Source: Botryllus schlosseri
Taxonomy: Eukaryota
DNA length: 64,000 nucleotides
Assembly (NCBI GenBank): GCA_051294905.1
Contig: CM119373.1
Location: 4,342,001 to 4,406,000, forward strand
Direction: 5' to 3'
Part shown: positions 5,113 to 16,645 of the stretch, piece by piece
Position numbering within the stretch: the stretch's first letter is position 1
Layout of the letters: each line of letters opens with the position of its first letter
Notes under the pieces: generated by a model
Databases searched by the model: none
Told to the model about the DNA's origin: nothing
What the model saw: only the letters and a program-made list of their open reading frames with translations
Program-made: the position numbers and the translations under genes

Positions 5113-6593
5113 CACTATAGCGTACGAGTCGCCATGTCTTCCAACTTAATCTCTAGAACTATAGTCGCCAATGAATCCACGATAACTGCCATGCCTACTG
5201 TGCAGAATAAGATCCTTTAAACTTAAGTTTTGTTGCTGACGAATCTGGAAAGTGTGACGCGTAGAATCGATATCGGTAGATTGGCGAATAATGCTGGACA
5301 CTATTGTTAAATTCGGAGTGAACCGTAATAGAAAATCGCAATATGTTAGCATGCTCTGGCACTCTTATTTGTTTTGGAAACGAAACACATTTTATGGATC
5401 AATTTCTTCGAAAGCTGGTCTTCAAGAAGTTGGAGAGATACTGCCCTCGTTTTGCCTTACTTATAGGACTTTACACAGTACAGTTCAATTCAGTTTATTA
5501 TAAATAATTTCATCACATCAATGCACCACAATATTGCGATACAATGGAAAGAAAGTGGGGGGGGGGGGTCGACACGACTTGGAGTAGTCGTTGAAATCAG
5601 ACCTCCGATGAGCGTAGGCGATGTAAAAAGAGGCATGCACATTATAGGAAAAATAATGGGAGATAACATAAAAGAGCAACCTACGAAAATGAGGTGGCAT
5701 GAGACGGAAGGCGACATCGATATATCGGACTGTGGGCCAGTAATCTCGAGTGCTGACCTTGTGGCATTCCTCTAGTAAACAAGGTAGCTGACTGATATAA
5801 TAGGCAGAGGTGGTCAAAGTAGTCAAGAAAGCTACTCAAATAGAAGTAGAAGTAGCGACGAAAAAATCTACTCAAGTATATGTAGAAGTACTTCTTCCAC
5901 AAGCAACCTAAAACTACTGTAAGTAGAAGTAGAATTGACCGACTTTAAATCTACTCAAGTAAGTAAGTAGTTGTGAAAACGATCGTAATTCGTTCGCATG
6001 AGTTGTCAAAAGGTGCAAATTGAGCTATGCGGAAAGGTGCCGAGCTTAATTCATATTGATGCATATCACGAGGTATTCAATTTTCGACAGCATAAGCATT
6101 CGTCCGCATAATGGGATGAAAAAGATGATATTGATATGGAAATGCGATACTAATCCTATGTTTAATCGAACAGCACGGTTTGGAAAATATCATGGTATGG
6201 CGCACTCCCCCATATTATAAGGCCCGTAGTTTAGTCGAAGAGCAATACGGAGAAGTTGTATAGGATACGGAGTTAACACTTTGCGCGATTAGAAAACGTG
6301 AACAAAAATGCCATATTGTGTAGCTTTATTTTCGGAAATAAAAGGTATTACTACACTTGCTTTTATACTTCAACATGTATGTTATCCAGACAAAAGAGCT
6401 GATATCAATTATAACTCAGAATATATGATACTGGGAATTGAAAGTGAAATATAAATACTAATTATAAAAGCGGATATTGTATTTCATAAGTCTTTGGTCC
6501 AGAAAGTTTCACAGGTGATATGCTAAAACAGCTCTAAAACTAAGAAAAGTTAGATTCCACTTTTCCAGATTAGGATACGCCATGAACTGCTAG

Positions 6594-6998
6594 TATTGCG
6601 ACGCGGGAATCGGATATTTCGGCGACAAGCATTTCACGGCTAGTCGGTTTTCACGTCGGTCTTTACGTCTACTCGATTGATTGTTATTTAATTTGATTGG
6701 TTAATTTAATTGTCGCGGCGTCCGTTCTCGTTTTTCTTCATGTCTCACGGTTCCTGTTTCATTTCTCGTCAATCGACTTCTATATCGGACGAGCAAGCAA
6801 TCTTGTGAATCTCGCCATTTAACTATATTCTGAACAAGCTATTCCGTATTGTATGTTCTGGACTGCTTGTATTTGAAACAGAAGAGATTTGAGATACACA
6901 ACGCTTGCTCGTACCCATTGCCAGATTTAGTGTGCAGCAGACAGGATCCCGACACCTGATAAAGCGCCACTCATTGATTTCAGTGCCGCGTCGGAACA
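6594..6998 (+). repeat. 5' LTR (405 bp, TATT...AACA)
   Basis: Identical to 15344-15748 except C6910 vs A15660. Confidence 0.97.
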
Positions 6999-7008
6999 AT
7001 TCACAAGA
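6999..7008 (+). promoter_or_regulatory. Candidate non-tRNA (self-priming) primer-binding site
   Basis: ATTCACAAGA directly follows the LTR; there is no TGG; it is the exact reverse complement of TCTTGTGAAT at 6801-6810. Confidence 0.55.
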
Positions 7009-7157
7009 AGTCTATTTAAGCCGATATCTTCGATACGCTCTTCGATTCAGGCATCGCATGTGCAGTCTACATTCAAGACTCTTCTGCCCTACGAAGAGCG
7101 ATAGACCCTGCTCGTCACTAAATCTGTTAATACTTAAGGAGTTTCGTTACGTTTGAG

Positions 7158-7685
7158 ATGTCGTTTGTGAAATCTCCAACGGATTCTCACAAGTCTCCAA
7201 CCTTGGCACCGACTTGGAAGCATCCAGCTAAGATGACGGTCGACGATTTACGATCCGAGTTACAAGTTCTTGGCGAAGCTACCAGTGGAAGCAAAGCTGT
7301 ATTGACAGAGCGATTAAGAAAAATCCGCGATTCCAACAAACCCTCGCAAAAGAAAGAGTCGACGCCCTCTCCATTGAGCACCACTGAAAATCCATCTGAA
7401 CTGGTCATGCTTTTTCAGATGATGAAGCATCAGCAAGATCTCGATCGTCAGCAGCAGCAATTAGATCGTGAAGCTGATCGCCGGCAGCAGCAATTAGATC
7501 GTGAAGATGCCGACCGCAAGTTTCAGTTGCAGCTTGAAGAGCTCAAGCAGAGACAGGTGCTGGAGCGTGAGGAAAGCGAAAGACGGTTTCAACTGCAACT
7601 GGAAGAAATTCGACAGAAGTCATCAAAAGACCAACTCAACTCGGGCCACCCATCGGCAAGTAACGGCGATCCATGTCTATACTGA
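7158..7685 (+). CDS. BEL/Pao Gag N-terminal part: SAP domain plus Q/E/R-rich coiled-coil; frameshifted from the rest of gag
   Basis: KMTVDDLRSELQVLGEATSGSKAVLTERL matches the SAP pattern (L.V.EL...L...GL.TSG.KA.L..RL); QQQLDRE repeats follow. Confidence 0.8.
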   Translation: MSFVKSPTDSHKSPTLAPTWKHPAKMTVDDLRSELQVLGEATSGSKAVLTERLRKIRDSNKPSQKKESTPSPLSTTENPSELVMLFQMMKHQQDLDRQQQQLDREADRRQQQLDREDADRKFQLQLEELKQRQVLEREESERRFQLQLEEIRQKSSKDQLNSGHPSASNGDPCLY

Positions 7686-8735
7686 GGTCATTATAAGAAG
7701 ATTCAGACGTATGCATGCCGAAGTTGTCGAGTCTTTGCAAGCGCTTGAAAATAAATATCGGAACCCCACCTCTTTCGAAGAGATCAACGTCTTCATACGA
7801 TCAGTAGATATAGCAATGACCGATCTCAAGACATTCGTTGATGCCAAAATCGACCAGCTTAACGATGGTGATTTAAAGACCGAAATCGTTGATGGCATGA
7901 GAAGCTCGAAAGAAAGTTATCTGGCACACCTCCCTCTTGCCAAATCGAAATCTGCATCACTTAAAGCTGCCGAGGATGCCGAGAAAGCCGCCGGATCGCT
8001 CCCCAGTGGAATACTGCCACCTACATTCAACGGCGACATTTTGACATTTCCCTCATTTTGGGAGTCATTCGAGCCACTGGTTCACGAAAATCCAAAGGTC
8101 AGTCGGTTTTACAAAATTACTTATTTAAAGGCGGCTCTCAAAGGATCGTCATCCGGCCTTCTTAATGGGTTCCCTTCGACGGCCGTGAGTTATGAGCCTG
8201 CCGTGGACGCTGTCCTTAAAAGGTACGGGAAGAAACAAGCCATAGTTAGAAATCACATCAAAGACTTGCTGCAAGTTGAGAAAGTCGAATTTAAGATCGA
8301 TAAAGTCAGGAGGCTACTCGATGCCGCCACTGCAAAAAGGGCGATATTAACGCAGTATGACGTCTCTTGGGACCAACTGTTTACACAGGTACTCGAGTCT
8401 CAGCTGCCGGGTACGCTGCGCGAACGTTGGATCAGGAAAATTAGTCCTATGATCGATGACGATGAAGTTCCTGATTCCGATCTCTTGTTCGAATTTCTGA
8501 CTACCGAGTTGGCGACGATGGAGTCCTTGCAGTCGCAGAGTGGGCGTCGCCCTACTGACGCACGTGACAAGCCGCAACATAAAGATAAACTGACTAGTTG
8601 CGTTGCCGGTGAAGTTGAAAAATCGTTTTCTGCGCAATCCCTGGTAACGCAATCCGTAACGCCATGCTGTAGCTACTGCTCGAGTCCGCATATGTTAAAA
8701 TCCTGTGACGAGTTTTTGAATTTGACTCCCCCCCC
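7660..8735 (+). CDS. BEL/Pao Gag core (DUF1759-like) and first Zn knuckle; start position approximate
   Basis: LPPTFNGDILTFPSFWESF...VHEN...KITYLKAALKG...YEPAVDAVLKRYG and CSYCSSPHMLKSC; ends at a C8 run (8728-8735) that shifts the frame. Confidence 0.9.
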
Positions 8736-8740
8736 AGCGA

Positions 8741-10942
8741 ATGGCTGACTTGGTCATGAATAAGCCTGGAAAAGTATGTTTCAGATGCTTATCTCCGAAA
8801 GGGCATGAAGGTCATCCGAAGACATTCCACCAATGTAAGGAGCGTTGTTCCGTCGCGGGCTGTGGGAAACCCCACCACGAATTGCTACACGTTTCTGGGG
8901 AACCATTGGGCGACGTCAAGTGTATGGTTTCAACCATTGGCAAGCCTCTTTCCGCCCCTGTTTTGCGAGATGCGGACATCGACACATTACTGCCTACTGC
9001 GTTAGGAAGCATCAACCACAATGGCGAAAGGAAACAGGTTAGAATCGCATTCGACTCTTTTTCCCAGAAGAGCTTTGTAACCCGTGGACTAGCAGATTCA
9101 ATGAAGCTAACGCCAACTAAAAGCGATTGCGTGGACATTAGTGGATTTGGAGGTAATTCTGCTTCAAGTGTTGTGGACGTTGTAAAATTCACGCTAGAGT
9201 CCACTGATGGCTTTGAAAACGTTAGTGTTGAGGCTTACGTTCAAGAAGGCGTGATTTGTGCGCCTTTAAGAAATGTAGATCTGTGCGCTTGTCAAATTTC
9301 TCACTTAGACGGTCTGAACCTTGCCGACCCCCTTCCAAGGAATAATGGGACCATTGTTATTCTTCTCGGAGGGCGATACTATTTTTCGCTGATGCAGGGA
9401 GAGGTGATTAGTCCTGATGTTCCGGAAATGGGGCCTTATGCGATCAAAACTATATTTGGCTGGGTGTTGGCGGGTCCTTGCGTTAAACTGGAACAAGATA
9501 GGAGTAACACCTCTAGTTGTCTACTTCTCACAACTACACCAAATCACGATTCATTGAAGTCAGATCCATGGCAGTCGTTGAACGACAAGTTGGAAAGATT
9601 TTGGGATCAAGATAGCATCGGTATTTGTGACAAGAAGACTATTCCTACTGCAGAGGAACGGGATGCCGTGGAACAGTTCGAAAGGTCGGTACAGTTTGAC
9701 GGCTCTAAATACGTTGTTTCCTTGCCATTCAGACGTGACGTGCCGGATTTGAAATCCGATTACCGCGAGGCCTATTCAAGATTGCTTTCAGCAGAGAAGA
9801 CGCTGCGTAGGAATCCTGAGAAGTCGCGAAACTACGACGCCGCAATCATGGAATATGAGAAAAACGGGTTCTCGAGAAAATTAACTCAGGACGAGTTCGA
9901 AGAAATTGGTAAGCTCCCTCATTACTTTGTCCCGCACCACCCGGTATTCAAAGAATCCAGTACCTCCACTAAGCTTCGCATAGTATTCGACGCGAGTGCT
10001 CGAGATTGCCAAGGTATGTCACTGAACGACTGTCTACTCAAGGGGCCGAACTTACTACCTGATATTGCGTCAGTGTTACTTCGTTTTCGTACTCACAGGA
10101 TTGCGCTCAGCGGGGATATCAAAAAGATGTTTTGCCAAACAGGTGTTGTTCCAGACCATCAAAGGTACCAATTATATCTTTGGCGTAATTGTGACTCTAC
10201 TCGACCACCCGATGTTTATGTTATGACCCGGGTTATGTTCGGCATTACCTCCAGTCCGTTTCTTGCAATTCAGACCATTCTGCATCACTCTCGTTTGCAG
10301 GGAAAGGATGCGGAAATTTCGAACATAATTGAGAAAAACATGTACGTAGACGATGTTCATCTTGGCGGCGATAACGTTGACGAAGTACTCGCATTGCAAC
10401 GCCGATTAGTTGATTTCTTTCGGGCAGGTGGATGGACGTTGGTCAAATTTGGATCGAATAGCCGTGAGTTGATCGAACAAATTCCGAAGCACGCACGATT
10501 GCCAAACTGCGAGCTGGATTTAGACGATGCTAAGTGTGGCGAAGCCTCTTCGTTAGGGCTGAAATGGCATACTCTTGATGATCTGATGTATTGTAATGTG
10601 ACTCCAAAACTCTGCGAACAAGACAAATTGGTTACTAAAAGAACCATGCTGAGCAAAGTCAGTCAAATTTATGATGTTTTCGGGTATTTTGCAGCCTTTG
10701 TAGTTCGCGTCAAGATTCTTCTCCAGGATTTATGGAGAAAGAAATTGGATTCGAACGATGAAGTCGATGAAGTCACAGCCACCAAGTACCGTCAATGGAC
10801 AGAGGAACTGGCCTCGCTTGAATCTATAAAGATACCAAGGTATCTATTCGTTGGGCTTCTTGGTTTGAAGAACATTCAACTCCACGGATTCGCCGATGCA
10901 TCTGAAGCCGCTTACGGCGCCGTCCTATACCTCAGAACCATG
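8741..10942 (+). CDS. BEL/Pao Zn knuckles, aspartic protease, reverse transcriptase and start of RNase H
   Basis: CFRC..H..C, C....C...HH.LLH, FDSFSQKSFV, RIVFDAS, DIKKMF, FG..SSPF, YVDD, HGFADASEAAYGAVLYLR; interrupted at 10943. Confidence 0.95.
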
Positions 10943-13321
10943 CAGGGCTTCGGAGCAGCCGTAAATTTGCATTGCTCCAGCTCCGGCTCCGGAGCTTTCT
11001 TCTATCATACAATAGCTCCGGCTCCAGCTCCGGAGCCGCATTATCACCACTGCTCCGGCTCCAGCTCCGGCTCCGGCTCTGAAAACTATCGAAGGTGTTT
11101 GTCTATGTCAGGGGTGGGTAACCCGCGGCACCCGGGCCATATGTGACCCGTGAGAAGGTTTTGAGTAGCCCGCGAGCTAACTTCCCATTATGTTATCGAA
11201 ATCCTATTATATGATCGAAATTGAATTGCTCAGCTTGTGAACTTGCAAGGCTAACCAAAAATATGATTTGTCTGACTGCAACACTTGGGATGTTGATGAC
11301 TAAAATATCAGTTACGACGCATTGGCAGATCCAGGGTCCAGTCACATTTTTAGTAAATCGTCTTACATTACAATAAACTAAAAGAGTAAGTAAAATTTTT
11401 CTTCACGCTTCGCGTGTTTAATAGTCACACGATTTCTTTTTTTGTAGTCTACCCCCTCCTGAAAATGAAAAAAACGCCTGATTTAGCCGATTGAGTCTAA
11501 TTATATTCGCAATTACGAGAGAAAGTCTTCTCGCGTTCGCGCTCGCAGAAAGATCGTCGACGATGAAATGTAGGCAAAAAATGATTGTCGTATATTAGCG
11601 GAAATCTTCGATATCGATAAGTCCAGATGTCGAATAGTCCTGTCCTTGCAAACTGAGCCCAGCAAGCGGTATATAGTCGACCCACAATATACCCAAGTAA
11701 TAATAATATTAACTTTGAAAATTTTTCGCGCCTGGCGCGGCTAGTGGGCAGCGCACTCGTTCGTCAATTTCATGTGGCCCTTAAGCCGAAAAGGTTGTCC
11801 CCCCTGGTCGATATAGATTACTAATTTATCCGTAGGTTAGTTATCTATAGTAATCTAGAGTCTGTCAGCCATCAGTAACATCGGATGCAGTAACAAACAC
11901 ATGGGTGTCGCCGTGCCGGTTTGTGACGTCATAATGAATACTTGGCAATTGTCGATAACATCACAGTTGCACTAGAACGCACTTTACTCCATGCCATTGC
12001 TGTGTACAGCATTAAAACTCTGATGGGGCGTTTTAACACTGGCATTGCACTCGTTAACATTAGGCCTTACAGCTCAATTCAATCTTTAAATATGCGATTA
12101 TAGTATTCAACTGTAACTGTGGTAAGAGCAATGTGGGCGGACATCACGACATCATCAATAGAAATTCGATTTGTACCAAATTGTTCAAATGGCCAACGGT
12201 TTGACGTTCGATATTGGTGCACTCGTTACCAGTCCATCCGGTGTCGATCAAGTTTATCGGAATATAATATTTTCCCCTTTAAACGAATCGGATAATCGAA
12301 TTGAACACTGCGCCATGCACATTGCGCCATGCCCATAACGAATTAAACTATGCCATAAGCACATTGCACAATGCACATTTACAAGTCACAGTGCGCGATA
12401 ATGCGGGAATACTAGAGTATCAAGCAGACATCAAGAATGAATTTACGAAACAGATGATTACAAATTGGAAATCGTGATTCAAATCAGTAATTTGTCTCTA
12501 ACATAAAATACCATGGGGTCCTTACATCGCATTGAGTAGCTCGCACCGCGTCAATTGTTTGCTGAGTGTAACGGCGTTTTGGGCTACTCTTCTGCCATCC
12601 CCTATTTACGCTCGAAAATCCTCACGGGAGTGAATGACGATCATGCGCAGTAATGAATTCCAATTCGCATGTATAATTGCATACACAATAACACTGTCCA
12701 TTTCGCGGCCCGATTAAAGAACTATATCGAAAGAACGAGTATTTGCTCATCCGATTTATAGCAACGATGAGATGGAATTTCTCGGCTCGTGCTCGTCATA
12801 TCTAGCCTACATGTGCAACGAAATCACGATTTTATCCTCTCTCCCATTTCGCATAATACATAGTGATCATTATTTTCGAACCGTACAATTGACCAACAAG
12901 GTTGTGCTGGTGATGAAATTGCGGGTGTGCCGAATACCCACAATATTCATAGGCATATTTAGCATACCGAGGTTCGGCACTCATGTATGAAAATTGAACA
13001 CTGAACATATGACTGCTCTGCTGTTAAATCCCAAGGAACATATGGTTAGTCGGAAAAGGTAGCACCAAAGAGGGAAAGATTCTTAATTTCGCGATGGCCT
13101 GCTGTTGAATTATCTGAACTCAGCAGATATGGTTGTTGCATATATAATAGCGTCTTATGAAATACGTCGGAGCCGGAGCTACCCCTCAAATAACTTGCTC
13201 CGGCTCCGGCTCCGGCTCCGGCTGAATTTTAAGTAGAGCTCCGGCTCCGGCTCCAGCTCCGGTCAAAATGCACGGCTCCGGGGCTCCGGCTCCGGGCTCC
13301 GGCTCCGGCTCCAAAGCCCTG
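10943..13321. mobile_element. Non-autonomous hAT-type element (2379 bp) inserted in the RNase H coding region
   Basis: TIR CAGGGCTTCGGAGC / GCTCCAAAGCCCTG (13/14); 8-bp TSD gaaccatg/gagccatg; (GCTCCG)n subterminal arrays; removing it restores LRTMDEEGTVV in frame. Confidence 0.92.
11109..11806 (-). mobile_element. Charlie-like hAT MITE nested in the 10943-13321 element
   Basis: caggggtgggtaacc...ggttgtcccccctg; degenerate TSD gtctatgt/gtcgatat; reverse-complement homolog of 22966-23693. Confidence 0.8.
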
Positions 13322-13326
13322 GAGCC

Positions 13327-15318
13327 ATGGACGAGGAAGGTACAGTAGTGATTCGTTACCTGATGTCGAAAACGAGAGTCGCTCCTTTGAAAGCGATGTC
13401 CGTTGCGCGACTAGAACTAATGTCGGCTCATTGTCTCGCTAAACTAGTTCGGTATTGCTTAGACGCTTGGTCCTCGGTTCTAACTGTCGACAACATTTAT
13501 TTGTGGTTAGACTCGCAGATTGCTCTCGCCTGGCTCGCCAAGCCGAGTACATACTGGAAAACCTTCGTGAGAAATCGAGTGCAGGAAATACATGATCTTG
13601 TCTCGCCGGACGCCTGGCGTCATTGCCCCGGTTGCGAGAACCCAGCAGACCTACACAGTCGAGGCATGAGTCTCCACGACTTGAAGTCGAGTAGCGTATA
13701 CTGGTATGGACCGCATTGGCTAGTTGAGGACGAGTCATGTTGGCCAACAAAAATTTTACCTAACAATATGACTTTGGACGCCCCGTTGTTGGAAAGTGCA
13801 AGTAATGTCCTTGTTGCTCTTATTAAAGATTCGGTTCCATTTTTTGAGAAATATTACAGCGACTTCAACAAGATCGTTCGTATCACCGCGAGAATTCTTC
13901 GTTGGAAGAACCGCAACTTTTCGGCATTGGACCCGCATTGCAACGACGTCCTAATTGGACCGAATGAGTACAATCTTGCCAGAGATCATTTATGGCGCCT
14001 CGTACAGCAATCCGAATTCGCAGGCGACTTCGACGATCTTCAAGGTGGTAAAGACGTGTCGCGTAAGTGCATATTTATCAACATGGACCCTCAGTACGAT
14101 GATGATCGCAAATTAATCGTAGCAGGAAATCGTTTGCTACTATCCGATTTACCGGAGTGCGCGAAACATCCCGTAATACTTCCTTCAAAACATTCTCTCG
14201 TCGAAAAATTCATCTTGCATGTTCATACTACGAATTCCCACTCTCCACAGGATACCACTATTGCGATCATCCGCGAGTATTACAGTATTATCCATATTCG
14301 GGGCGAGGTTAGGCGAGCCCTACGTAAATGTATCACATGTCGACATTGGCGCACGAAACCCTTGACCCAGAAAATGGGAATACTGCCCCCAGAAAGAATT
14401 TGTGTAGCTCCTGCATTTTCAGAAGTGGGTCTTGATTTTACGGGACCCATTTATATCGACACTGGTACCAAAACTATGCAGAAGGCGTACATCTGTCTGT
14501 TTACCTGTCCCCACAGTAGGATGGTTCATTTTGAATTAACGAACAGTATGTCAACTGAAGAGTTCTTAGCTGCATTGAGACGCATGATGAACCGAAGAGG
14601 TTGGTGCAGAGAGATAATCAGCGACAACCAGAAAACCTTTAAGAAGGCTGAGAAGATCATCAGACTATCCATCCGTGCGCTATTCAAAGGTACTGCTGAT
14701 AACGAAAAATTGCAGAAGTTCATGACCGACAATGGTATTCACTGGAAGTACATAGTAGAGCGTGCGCCCCATCGCGGAGCGTTCTACGAGAGAATGAATC
14801 GCTCCCTCAAAGAGCCACTCCGGAAGATATTGGGTAAGGCCAGTCTAACCTACGTTGAAATGTATACCGTACTTACAGACATCGAATGCGCACTCAATCA
14901 AAGGCCGCTGACCTATTTGGGAGCCGACTCCCGGAATCCGCAGGCTATTACGCCGGCTCATCTCTGCATTGGACGTCCGCTCGGTCAACTGCCGTACTTG
15001 CCTACACGCGCCAACATTACGAAGCGGTTCCGATATCTGCAGACACTGCTCAAACACTTTTGGACAAGGTGGAGCAAGGAGTATCTGCCTTCGCTGCTTC
15101 GACGAAACAAATGGAACATTCAGCAACGAGCCCCGAAGATAGGAGATGTTTGCCTTATTGCAGAAGACGGGCTAAATAGACCGAGTTGGCTCACGGCACG
15201 AGTCATCGATACGATTGAAGGCAAAGATGGCCTTGTAAGGACGCTCAAGTTGAAAACGGCAAAAAGTATATTGACTCGTCCCATTCAGAAAATTCATCTG
15301 TTGGAACCTGTTGACTGA
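13327..15318 (+). CDS. BEL/Pao RNase H remainder and integrase (HHCC, DDE, C-terminal DUF5641-like)
   Basis: KTRVAP, ARLEL, DSQIALAW, NPAD, HPVILP, H..H/C..C, DFTGP, SDN, FYERM, LNQRPL, FWTRWSKEY, GKDGLVR. Confidence 0.95.
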   Translation: MDEEGTVVIRYLMSKTRVAPLKAMSVARLELMSAHCLAKLVRYCLDAWSSVLTVDNIYLWLDSQIALAWLAKPSTYWKTFVRNRVQEIHDLVSPDAWRHCPGCENPADLHSRGMSLHDLKSSSVYWYGPHWLVEDESCWPTKILPNNMTLDAPLLESASNVLVALIKDSVPFFEKYYSDFNKIVRITARILRWKNRNFSALDPHCNDVLIGPNEYNLARDHLWRLVQQSEFAGDFDDLQGGKDVSRKCIFINMDPQYDDDRKLIVAGNRLLLSDLPECAKHPVILPSKHSLVEKFILHVHTTNSHSPQDTTIAIIREYYSIIHIRGEVRRALRKCITCRHWRTKPLTQKMGILPPERICVAPAFSEVGLDFTGPIYIDTGTKTMQKAYICLFTCPHSRMVHFELTNSMSTEEFLAALRRMMNRRGWCREIISDNQKTFKKAEKIIRLSIRALFKGTADNEKLQKFMTDNGIHWKYIVERAPHRGAFYERMNRSLKEPLRKILGKASLTYVEMYTVLTDIECALNQRPLTYLGADSRNPQAITPAHLCIGRPLGQLPYLPTRANITKRFRYLQTLLKHFWTRWSKEYLPSLLRRNKWNIQQRAPKIGDVCLIAEDGLNRPSWLTARVIDTIEGKDGLVRTLKLKTAKSILTRPIQKIHLLEPVD

Positions 15319-15330
15319 CTACAGTCGGTC

Positions 15331-15343
15331 AAGGGGGGGAGGA
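15331..15343 (+). promoter_or_regulatory. Polypurine tract
   Basis: AAGGGGGGGAGGA immediately 5' of the 3' LTR. Confidence 0.9.
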
Positions 15344-15748
15344 TATTGCGACGCGGGAATCGGATATTTCGGCGACAAGCATTTCACGGCTAGTCGGTTT
15401 TCACGTCGGTCTTTACGTCTACTCGATTGATTGTTATTTAATTTGATTGGTTAATTTAATTGTCGCGGCGTCCGTTCTCGTTTTTCTTCATGTCTCACGG
15501 TTCCTGTTTCATTTCTCGTCAATCGACTTCTATATCGGACGAGCAAGCAATCTTGTGAATCTCGCCATTTAACTATATTCTGAACAAGCTATTCCGTATT
15601 GTATGTTCTGGACTGCTTGTATTTGAAACAGAAGAGATTTGAGATACACAACGCTTGCTAGTACCCATTGCCAGATTTAGTGTGCAGCAGACAGGATCCC
15701 GACACCTGATAAAGCGCCACTCATTGATTTCAGTGCCGCGTCGGAACA
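15344..15748 (+). repeat. 3' LTR (405 bp)
   Basis: Direct repeat of 6594-6998, followed by TSD GCTAG. Confidence 0.97.
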
Positions 15749-16645
15749 GCTAGATTACGATATGATAGGGAAATGCTAGATTGCTAAACATCAGTTTCAA
15801 ACGTTATGATGAGCCATATATATACTGTGATGTAATGTTTGATATGGGCAACGGGAGACAATGCGGTGTGAACTGAACCATGCCAACCCGCTACCTAAAT
15901 TATATTCACCGAAACTTTCGTGAAATCAAGCTGGTTACTCCGTATCCATGGAGCGCGACGAAAATTCTGGGCGTTACTCAATTTTTATGAAAATTAAATG
16001 TTGTTACTCCTTGAAAATAGCCCCGAAATTCCTCAGGCTATCTTCCTGATTGGGGGATTAAACTATTTCTACTTGACAAACTGAAAATAGCGAAAAGTAA
16101 GTAAGTAGATCACAAAAAATTACGAAGTAGAAGTAGCGAAAATCAGATCTACTTCAGTAAGTACCAGAAGTAGAGGAAAACTACTTGGGTACTTCGAAAA
16201 AGTAGAAGTGCTTCGTTACTGACCACCTCTGATAACAGGTTAGCTTTGCTGGTTACGTAACCGGGAAGTCCGGTACTGTGGTTTGCAAGTTTTTAATGCC
16301 AAGATGTTTACTCAAACAAACGTTCATAGGATAGCGGTTATCACGAGTCTCTCGAACACTTGGCAACCATAGAATGACTTTATGGCATATATTATGTCAT
16401 CAATAGCTTTAACGATGATATGACATGTGTTGTACGTTGTTATCGTCTATTGGGATAACAATCCCAAGTCCATTTCAGGGTGACAGAGTCAACTACAGCA
16501 TTTAAAATCATCATTTTTGAGCAATAAAATATGATGAATTGGATACTTGATGAATTTTGGAAACGCCTGTTCTAAAGTCTGAATCTTTGCATGGCTGCCC
16601 CTGCTCACGACTAACTTCATTTTAGGCGTACACGGCTTCAGTGTT

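Follow-up and report, generated by a model that had tools for sequence, protein, structure and literature searches.

Complementarity between the LTR and the putative primer binding site of a BEL/Pao retrotransposon in Botryllus schlosseri points to probable self-priming and recurs in most sampled lineages of the genome

The window, a 64,000-nt stretch of the Botryllus schlosseri genome (contig CM119373.1, positions 4,342,001 to 4,406,000), contains an LTR retrotransposon delimited by a 405-bp direct repeat, in which the copies at 6594-6998 and 15344-15748 are identical at 404 of 405 bases, with the sole mismatch at 6910. Its component parts, in window coordinates, are as follows:

6589..6593, + strand: left copy of the target site duplication GCTAG, matching the 5 bases behind the 3′ LTR
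6594..6998, + strand: 5′ LTR, 405 bp, with TA...CA termini, its bounds set by the second copy
6594..6800, + strand: putative U3 (the promoter part of the LTR), taken as everything upstream of the self-primer, with no conserved TATA
6801..6810, + strand: candidate self-primer TCTTGTGAAT, predicted to open both R and the transcript, from complementarity, covariation and RNAalifold
6965..6990, + strand: tentative U5 hairpin predicted by RNAalifold, 8 nt ahead of the primer binding site
6999..7008, + strand: putative primer binding site, ATTCACAAGA, directly adjoining the LTR, from complementarity and covariation
7158..8748, + strand: gag region in two overlapping frames, 7158-7685 (SAP) and 7507-8748 (DUF1759), the frame being broken here
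8741..10980, + strand: pol part 1, with aspartic protease and Peptidase_A17 profile positions 1-114 (Pfam)
10980..13330 (bounds approximate), no strand: non-coding insertion of about 2.35 kb splitting pol, evident from the split PF05380 match (profile positions 1-114 and 103-162)
13327..15318, + strand: pol part 2, with the remaining Peptidase_A17, integrase (Integrase_H2C2, rve) and DUF5641 (Pfam)
15331..15343, + strand: polypurine tract AAGGGGGGGAGGA, the same tract lying ahead of other 3′ LTRs in the family
15344..15748, + strand: 3′ LTR, from the repeat comparison
15749..15753, + strand: right copy of the target site duplication GCTAG, pairing with the left copy

The window copy is a young but broken insertion, with its gag-pol broken into several frames; relatives elsewhere in the genome have single open frames of about 1900-2150 aa, and other copies of the window family span about 6.7-6.8 kb from LTR to LTR. 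The segment that splits pol (10980-13330) looks like a nested non-autonomous insertion, and at both of its ends there are stretches of about 110 bp rich in GCTCCG repeats (10971-11085 and 13194-13317). In the gag region, a SAP domain (aa 25-55 of the frame at 7158-7685, E = 1.4e-08) precedes the DUF1759 gag domain. All 15 inspected LTR copies of the window family start with TATTG, and their termini are TA...CA, or in a few cases TA...TA, as opposed to the usual TG...CA, while the LTRs of related lineages (L061, L063) start with TGT. Six further insertions of the window family, two of which are solo LTRs, are each flanked by their own 5-bp duplication, indicating that the family has transposed with the putative primer binding site in place.

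The Pfam domain set places the element in BEL/Pao (Belpaoviridae, Semotivirus), in agreement with the class assigned to it in the first-pass annotation, which was made from the sequence alone. The pol region yields matches to PF05380 (Peptidase_A17; 2.2e-25 and 1.5e-10, split by the insertion), DUF5641 (2.3e-28), rve and Integrase_H2C2, and the gag region matches PF03564 (DUF1759) at 5.2e-24. The domain order protease - RT region - integrase, the two LTRs, the short target site duplication and the polypurine tract are likewise those of BEL/Pao elements, and the nearest Atlas clusters of one superfamily relative all contain PF05380, DUF5641 and DUF1759. The Pfam matches of the window element comprise BEL/Pao domains only, and no chromodomain is found among them. 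Membership in the Tf1/sushi clade was ruled out, since there is neither a Ty3/gypsy-type pol nor a chromodomain match.

The ten bases that directly follow the 5′ LTR, ATTCACAAGA (6999-7008), are the exact reverse complement of TCTTGTGAAT at 6801-6810, which starts at position 208 of the 405-bp LTR. This perfect 10-mer match had been pointed out in the first-pass annotation, which took A6999 as the first base after the LTR and noted that no TGG follows the LTR; we find the same, with the LTR bounds now fixed by the second copy. The complement is exactly 10 nt long, and pairing ends on both sides, where A6800 lies opposite A7009 and C6811 lies opposite A6998. The analytic chance of such a match at offset 0 is 396 positions/4^10 = 3.8e-4; given this value and the decoy frequency reported below, the earlier estimate of about 1 in 1000 was a fair one. 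When 6801-7030 is folded as a single sequence, the MFE structure and the centroid alike contain the pairing of bases 1-10 with the site, and the stability of this fold shows no excess over shuffled sequences (z = 0.33).

We searched the B. schlosseri genome (495 Mb) with the LTR plus leader and obtained 41 matches, of which 19 rows reach the leader. Both sites are present in 16 of these rows, and five of the 16 combine TCTTGTGAAT with ATTCACAAGA. Ten rows, at 83-88% identity, combine TCTTGCGAAT with ATTCGCAAGA, which amounts to a double change from a U-A to a C-G pair, and in row L018 a later A-to-G change still leaves a G-U pair. The three leader-reaching rows without the LTR site are L008, which is a fragment, and L009 and L010, which have a deletion there. 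More distant elements sharing a homologous LTR end (GCCGCG..AACA) carry yet other combinations, namely CGTTGTAAAT with ATTTACAACG in L061 and L064, and TGTTATAAAT with ATTTATAACA in L062.

The covariation alignment, A3, consists of 19 rows and leaves out the fragment L008 as well as L009 and L010, in which the site is kept and the LTR 10-mer is deleted. For the 10-bp helix, 180 of 180 cells in this alignment are paired, and 5 of the 10 pairs have changed on both sides. The observed number of paired cells, the number of double-change pairs and the covariation score are each reached by none of 500 shuffles; further pair types are no more numerous than in shuffled alignments, 499 of 500 of which attain the observed count. 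With the partner shifted by 1-3 columns, just 34-49% of the cells remain paired, and RNAalifold recovers the 6801-6810/6999-7008 helix unaided. A natural control is provided by 3′ LTRs and by solo or second LTR copies, which border unrelated flanking sequence. Covariation across relatives, which the first-pass annotation had proposed to look for, is thus present, and we regard it as almost certain that the pairing is real and conserved. In the same RNAalifold analysis, the U5 hairpin at 6965-6990 appears with a consensus stem CGC/GCG and an inner stem in the 19 sequences, its changes being mostly one-sided.

A PF05380 search of the same genome returned at least 150 BEL/Pao pol matches. Among the 150 matches listed, we surveyed 19 elements, the window element included, belonging to nine mutually unalignable LTR lineages; as they come from one genome and were picked by frame length and score spread, they do not represent a random sample. 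Sixteen of the 19, from eight of the nine lineages, have a perfect complement of 10-13 nt located 0-3 nt past the 5′ LTR. Each positive lineage has a sequence of its own, with the partner situated at 44-68% of the LTR length, as listed below by partner, length of the complement and offset:

Window superfamily (W, L061, L062, L064): four variants, 10-11 nt, offset 0
L063, L065: partner AAGTTTCTGAC, 11 nt, offset 0
A, C / B, R: partner CTGTATCTAC / CTGTATTTAC, 10 nt, offset 0
F: partner TCGTATTTAAA, 11 nt, offset 2
H: partner TATTTTAAAAC, 11 nt, offset 0
L: partner GATTTTTTAAC, 11 nt, offset 3
M: partner TATTTTTTAAC, 11 nt, offset 2
K, J: partner CGTAATTTTTAAC, 13 nt, offset 3 (the 13 nt in J assumes that its LTR ends as in K, the BLAST-defined LTR end yielding 8 nt)

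The sites of A and C on the one hand and of B and R on the other, GTAGATACAG and GTAAATACAG, are compensatory too; in element A, the LTR end was shifted by one base that matched the flank. The first 16 elements were also scored at decoy sites 20-370 nt downstream, where 2 out of 1408 groups of four offsets contained a complement of at least 10 nt; an overlong LTR was used for H in this count, which can only raise the decoy rate. A TGG directly after the LTR is found in none of the 19 elements. Outside the B. schlosseri genome, relatives were sought in viral_contigs, where there were none, and in metagenome_contigs, which yielded two contigs (1.3 and 2.5 kb), neither of them with LTRs.

The remaining three of the 19 elements, D, E and G, form a lineage in which the best partner is a 9-bp match with one G-U pair at offset 4, which is not significant. 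Their post-LTR bases, TAAAGTTTTTTGACGA, show no TGG and no convincing self-complement, and the layout is therefore not universal among the sampled BEL/Pao elements. It is the prevailing arrangement in our sample of BEL/Pao lineages from this genome. The first-pass annotation had envisaged self-priming as a peculiarity of one lineage; the self-priming part of this proposal gains support, but its restriction to one odd lineage does not hold, as eight of the nine sampled lineages show the layout. The D/E/G lineage (L072-L075, L078-L079; C16:5.56 Mb, C10:19.02 Mb, C5:25.10 Mb) has a 457-bp LTR of the form TGAAGT...GGTTACA.

In the Tf1 scheme, the mRNA pairs with the primer binding site through its first 11 bases, behind which RNase H cuts. 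We consider it likely that the window element is self-primed in the same manner, and that the first 10-11 bases of its transcript would fold back onto the site. The element’s own RNA would be the simplest choice of primer, because the site lies at the position of a primer 3′ end and its partner lies in the element’s own LTR, is lineage-specific and covaries with it. The transcript would start in the LTR at 6801 or 1-2 nt before it, and its first 10 bases would fold over R-U5 and pair with 6999-7008 directly after U5, a pairing that complementarity and covariation show. By analogy with Tf1, the element RNase H would then cleave the transcript behind base 10 so that a short RNA primer stays on the site, and reverse transcriptase would extend this primer through U5 and R to produce minus-strand strong-stop DNA. 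Following the standard retroviral scheme, plus-strand strong-stop synthesis would copy the primer into DNA, and the site would be rewritten from the LTR in each cycle. Such rewriting could account for the perfect match between LTR and site in every positive lineage, and the match would be kept without selection on double mutants.

Several features of the LTR bear on the position of the transcript start. The CA dinucleotide is the commonest start for polymerase II, and in 9 of 12 contexts, representing 5 of 8 independent lineages, a CA ends 1-2 nt upstream of the complement, although this count was made post hoc. The limit of 10-13 nt on the length of the complement, as well as its mid-LTR position, would fit a U3/R border. 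The first-pass annotation had cautioned that there is no clean TATA box, with TATAT at 6781; the motif is present there, and it is the only TATA-like motif, 20 nt upstream of 6801. This is closer than usual, a TATA-driven start being expected to fall near 6809-6814, and the sister subfamily does not have the motif. In view of this distance and lack of conservation, we rejected TATA spacing as an argument in favour of a start at 6801.

Since complementarity and covariation are compatible with every model that has the LTR 10-mer paired to the site, the element’s RNA could also prime via its 3′ end: the 10-mer would then represent the end of R, that is, the cleavage/poly(A) site, and a genomic RNA would anneal to the site by its free 3′ end, offering a natural 3′-OH that needs no RNase H cut. 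However, neither AATAAA nor ATTAAA occurs in the 35 nt preceding the primer end in any of 10 contexts, and the canonical poly(A) signals in two lineages lie about 100 nt downstream, at +109 in L061 and +100 in F. Taken with the upstream CA, these signal positions would lend indirect support to a transcript start at the complement. Four RNA-seq runs placed just 7, 3, 2 and 17 reads on 6540-7240, mostly from related copies, and those few reads (depth 2-8, from a related copy) cross 6810 unbroken and stop near 6920, which argues, though weakly, against a poly(A) site at 6810. In addition, pairing between a poly(A) tail and the U5 end GGAACA is not expected, and a complement that stops at 10-13 nt is better suited to an RNA 5′ end than to a long RNA. 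Overall, we regard priming via the 3′ end as quite improbable. The pairing might, alternatively, constitute a long-range RNA-RNA contact with another role, such as packaging, dimerisation or the joining of the 3′ U3/R to the 5′ end for strand transfer, with a host RNA serving as the primer. Covariation is indicative of pairing or copying and not of priming as such, and the D/E/G lineage, having neither a complement nor a TGG, implies that another primer must exist in the genome. This alternative nonetheless appears unlikely, as the paired site always starts 0-3 nt past the LTR, a position which is set by a primer 3′ end, no TGG or shared host-type site is seen in the 19 elements, and the lineage-specific sites would demand a separate host primer for each lineage.

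It is very unlikely that a host tRNA, half-tRNA or snRNA acts as the primer and the LTR copy is incidental: there is no CCA complement after the LTR, and an incidental copy would neither covary nor recur in eight lineages with eight different sequences. When host tRNAs were compared with the sites, the longest complement was 7 nt, in a set that covers six anticodon types only (Lys, Met, Ala, SeC-like, Arg and Ser), which leaves this explanation some room, as does a 6-mer, TCTTGC, common to the subfamily B primer and the anticodon arm of one tRNA-Ala(TGC)-like gene. The set was drawn from an RF00005 search in which 63 of about 36,000 candidates were scored, nearly all of them tRNA-Lys(TTT), and was enlarged from twelve additional places by Arg, Ser and more Ala sequences; no tRNA gene was found in the window. 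As for chance complementarity, the odds that a lone 10-mer matches within a given 405-bp LTR are about 4e-4 to 1.5e-3, which is within reach of a genome-wide reading, but its recurrence in 16 of 19 elements and eight of nine lineages, as compared with 2 of 1408 decoys, and the presence of compensatory changes refute this explanation, the probability of which we regard as negligible. Self-priming from the 5′ end of the element’s own transcript is the reading we retain as likely. The tRNA search was dominated by a dense array at C3:34.49-34.51 Mb (L040-L052, L056-L057), which comprises dozens of tRNA-Lys(TTT) genes and variants spaced about 160-360 bp apart.

To our knowledge, BEL/Pao is the least studied superfamily of LTR retrotransposons. 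The window element is similar to Tf1/Tf2 from Schizosaccharomyces pombe, to Tf1/sushi elements and to the plant and fungal Tcn1 elements in that it has no tRNA site and carries a short post-LTR site complementary to a stretch inside the LTR that is presumed to form the 5′ end of the transcript; self-primer length is about 11 nt in Tf1 and 10-13 nt here. Tf1/sushi and Tcn1 elements are Ty3/gypsy chromoviruses, whereas the elements described here contain Peptidase_A17, DUF1759 and DUF5641, with no chromodomain match. For Tf1, experiments reportedly established where the transcript begins and that RNase H makes the cut, whereas for the elements described here both are predicted. By analogy, the best mechanism for the window element would be that of a Tf1/sushi element operating within BEL/Pao.

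The statement of the first-pass annotation that Tf1/sushi elements self-prime agrees with the relevant part of a published account, in which Tf1/sushi (Ty3/gypsy) elements use self-primers and Tcn1 elements are predicted to do so (PMC6317226). The same passages extend the prediction to the TAR lineage of plant Ty1/copia elements (Houba, Osr-1); TAR is comparable to our case in that self-priming is deduced from sequence outside Ty3/gypsy, and differs in being a Ty1/copia lineage of plants rather than BEL/Pao (PMC6317226). Self-priming has also been put forward for a hypothetical LTR ancestor and for DIRS elements, in a text that describes BEL/Pao as restricted to metazoans (PMC3601003, in the sections concerned). 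Where primer sites of BEL/Pao elements are reported, as in the portion of PMC4580426 dealing with Achilles from the olive fruit fly, they are of the tRNA type: Achilles belongs to the same superfamily and has the same build (LTRs, gag-pol and polypurine tract), with a tRNA-Tyr site, as opposed to the absence of TGG and the pairing with the element’s own LTR seen here. A survey of BEL/Pao (PMC3118150) and the paper on Sinbad (PMC554778) mention neither a PBS nor a tRNA in their main text. In the main text of the openly accessible papers searched, we found no statement on self-priming in BEL/Pao, in line with the first-pass annotation, which was not aware of any such description.

It is conceivable, and we put this forward tentatively, that self-priming is the normal start of reverse transcription in a large BEL/Pao radiation, rather than a quirk of one family, given its layout in eight of the nine lineages sampled here. 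If so, all three superfamilies of LTR retrotransposons would contain self-primed branches, and the Tf1 mechanism would extend to a third superfamily and to animals, with many natural covarying pairs of primer and site. Self-priming would then either arise easily and repeatedly or be old, with tRNA priming appearing later, as in a model outlined in part of PMC3601003. The layout thereby bears on the evolution of primer choice, including the question of whether hairpin or self-priming came before tRNA priming. Searches for tRNA 3′ ends alone would miss such sites; a survey of env-carrying Ty3/gypsy elements, according to its description of the procedure, looked just for tRNA 3′ ends beside the 5′ LTR (PMC13524379). 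Testing the post-LTR bases against the element’s own LTR would improve the annotation of such elements.

Among the copies collected in the genome search, L009 and L010 (C1:27140737-27141157 and 27148600-27149020) represent 5′ LTR-plus-leader copies in opposite orientation, 7.4 kb apart, which both lack the same stretch of about 40 bases, covering the LTR 10-mer, and retain the site; they form a rearranged or palindromic copy. L016 and L024 (C2:35625639 and 35642850) are the LTRs of a subfamily B copy and share the duplication ACAGG; as this copy measures about 17 kb from end to end, it probably holds large nested insertions. In L062 (C5:2681830-2691820), the 3′ LTR lacks 16 U5 bases that are present in its 5′ LTR, just ahead of the conserved GTGCCGCGCAGAAACA end.
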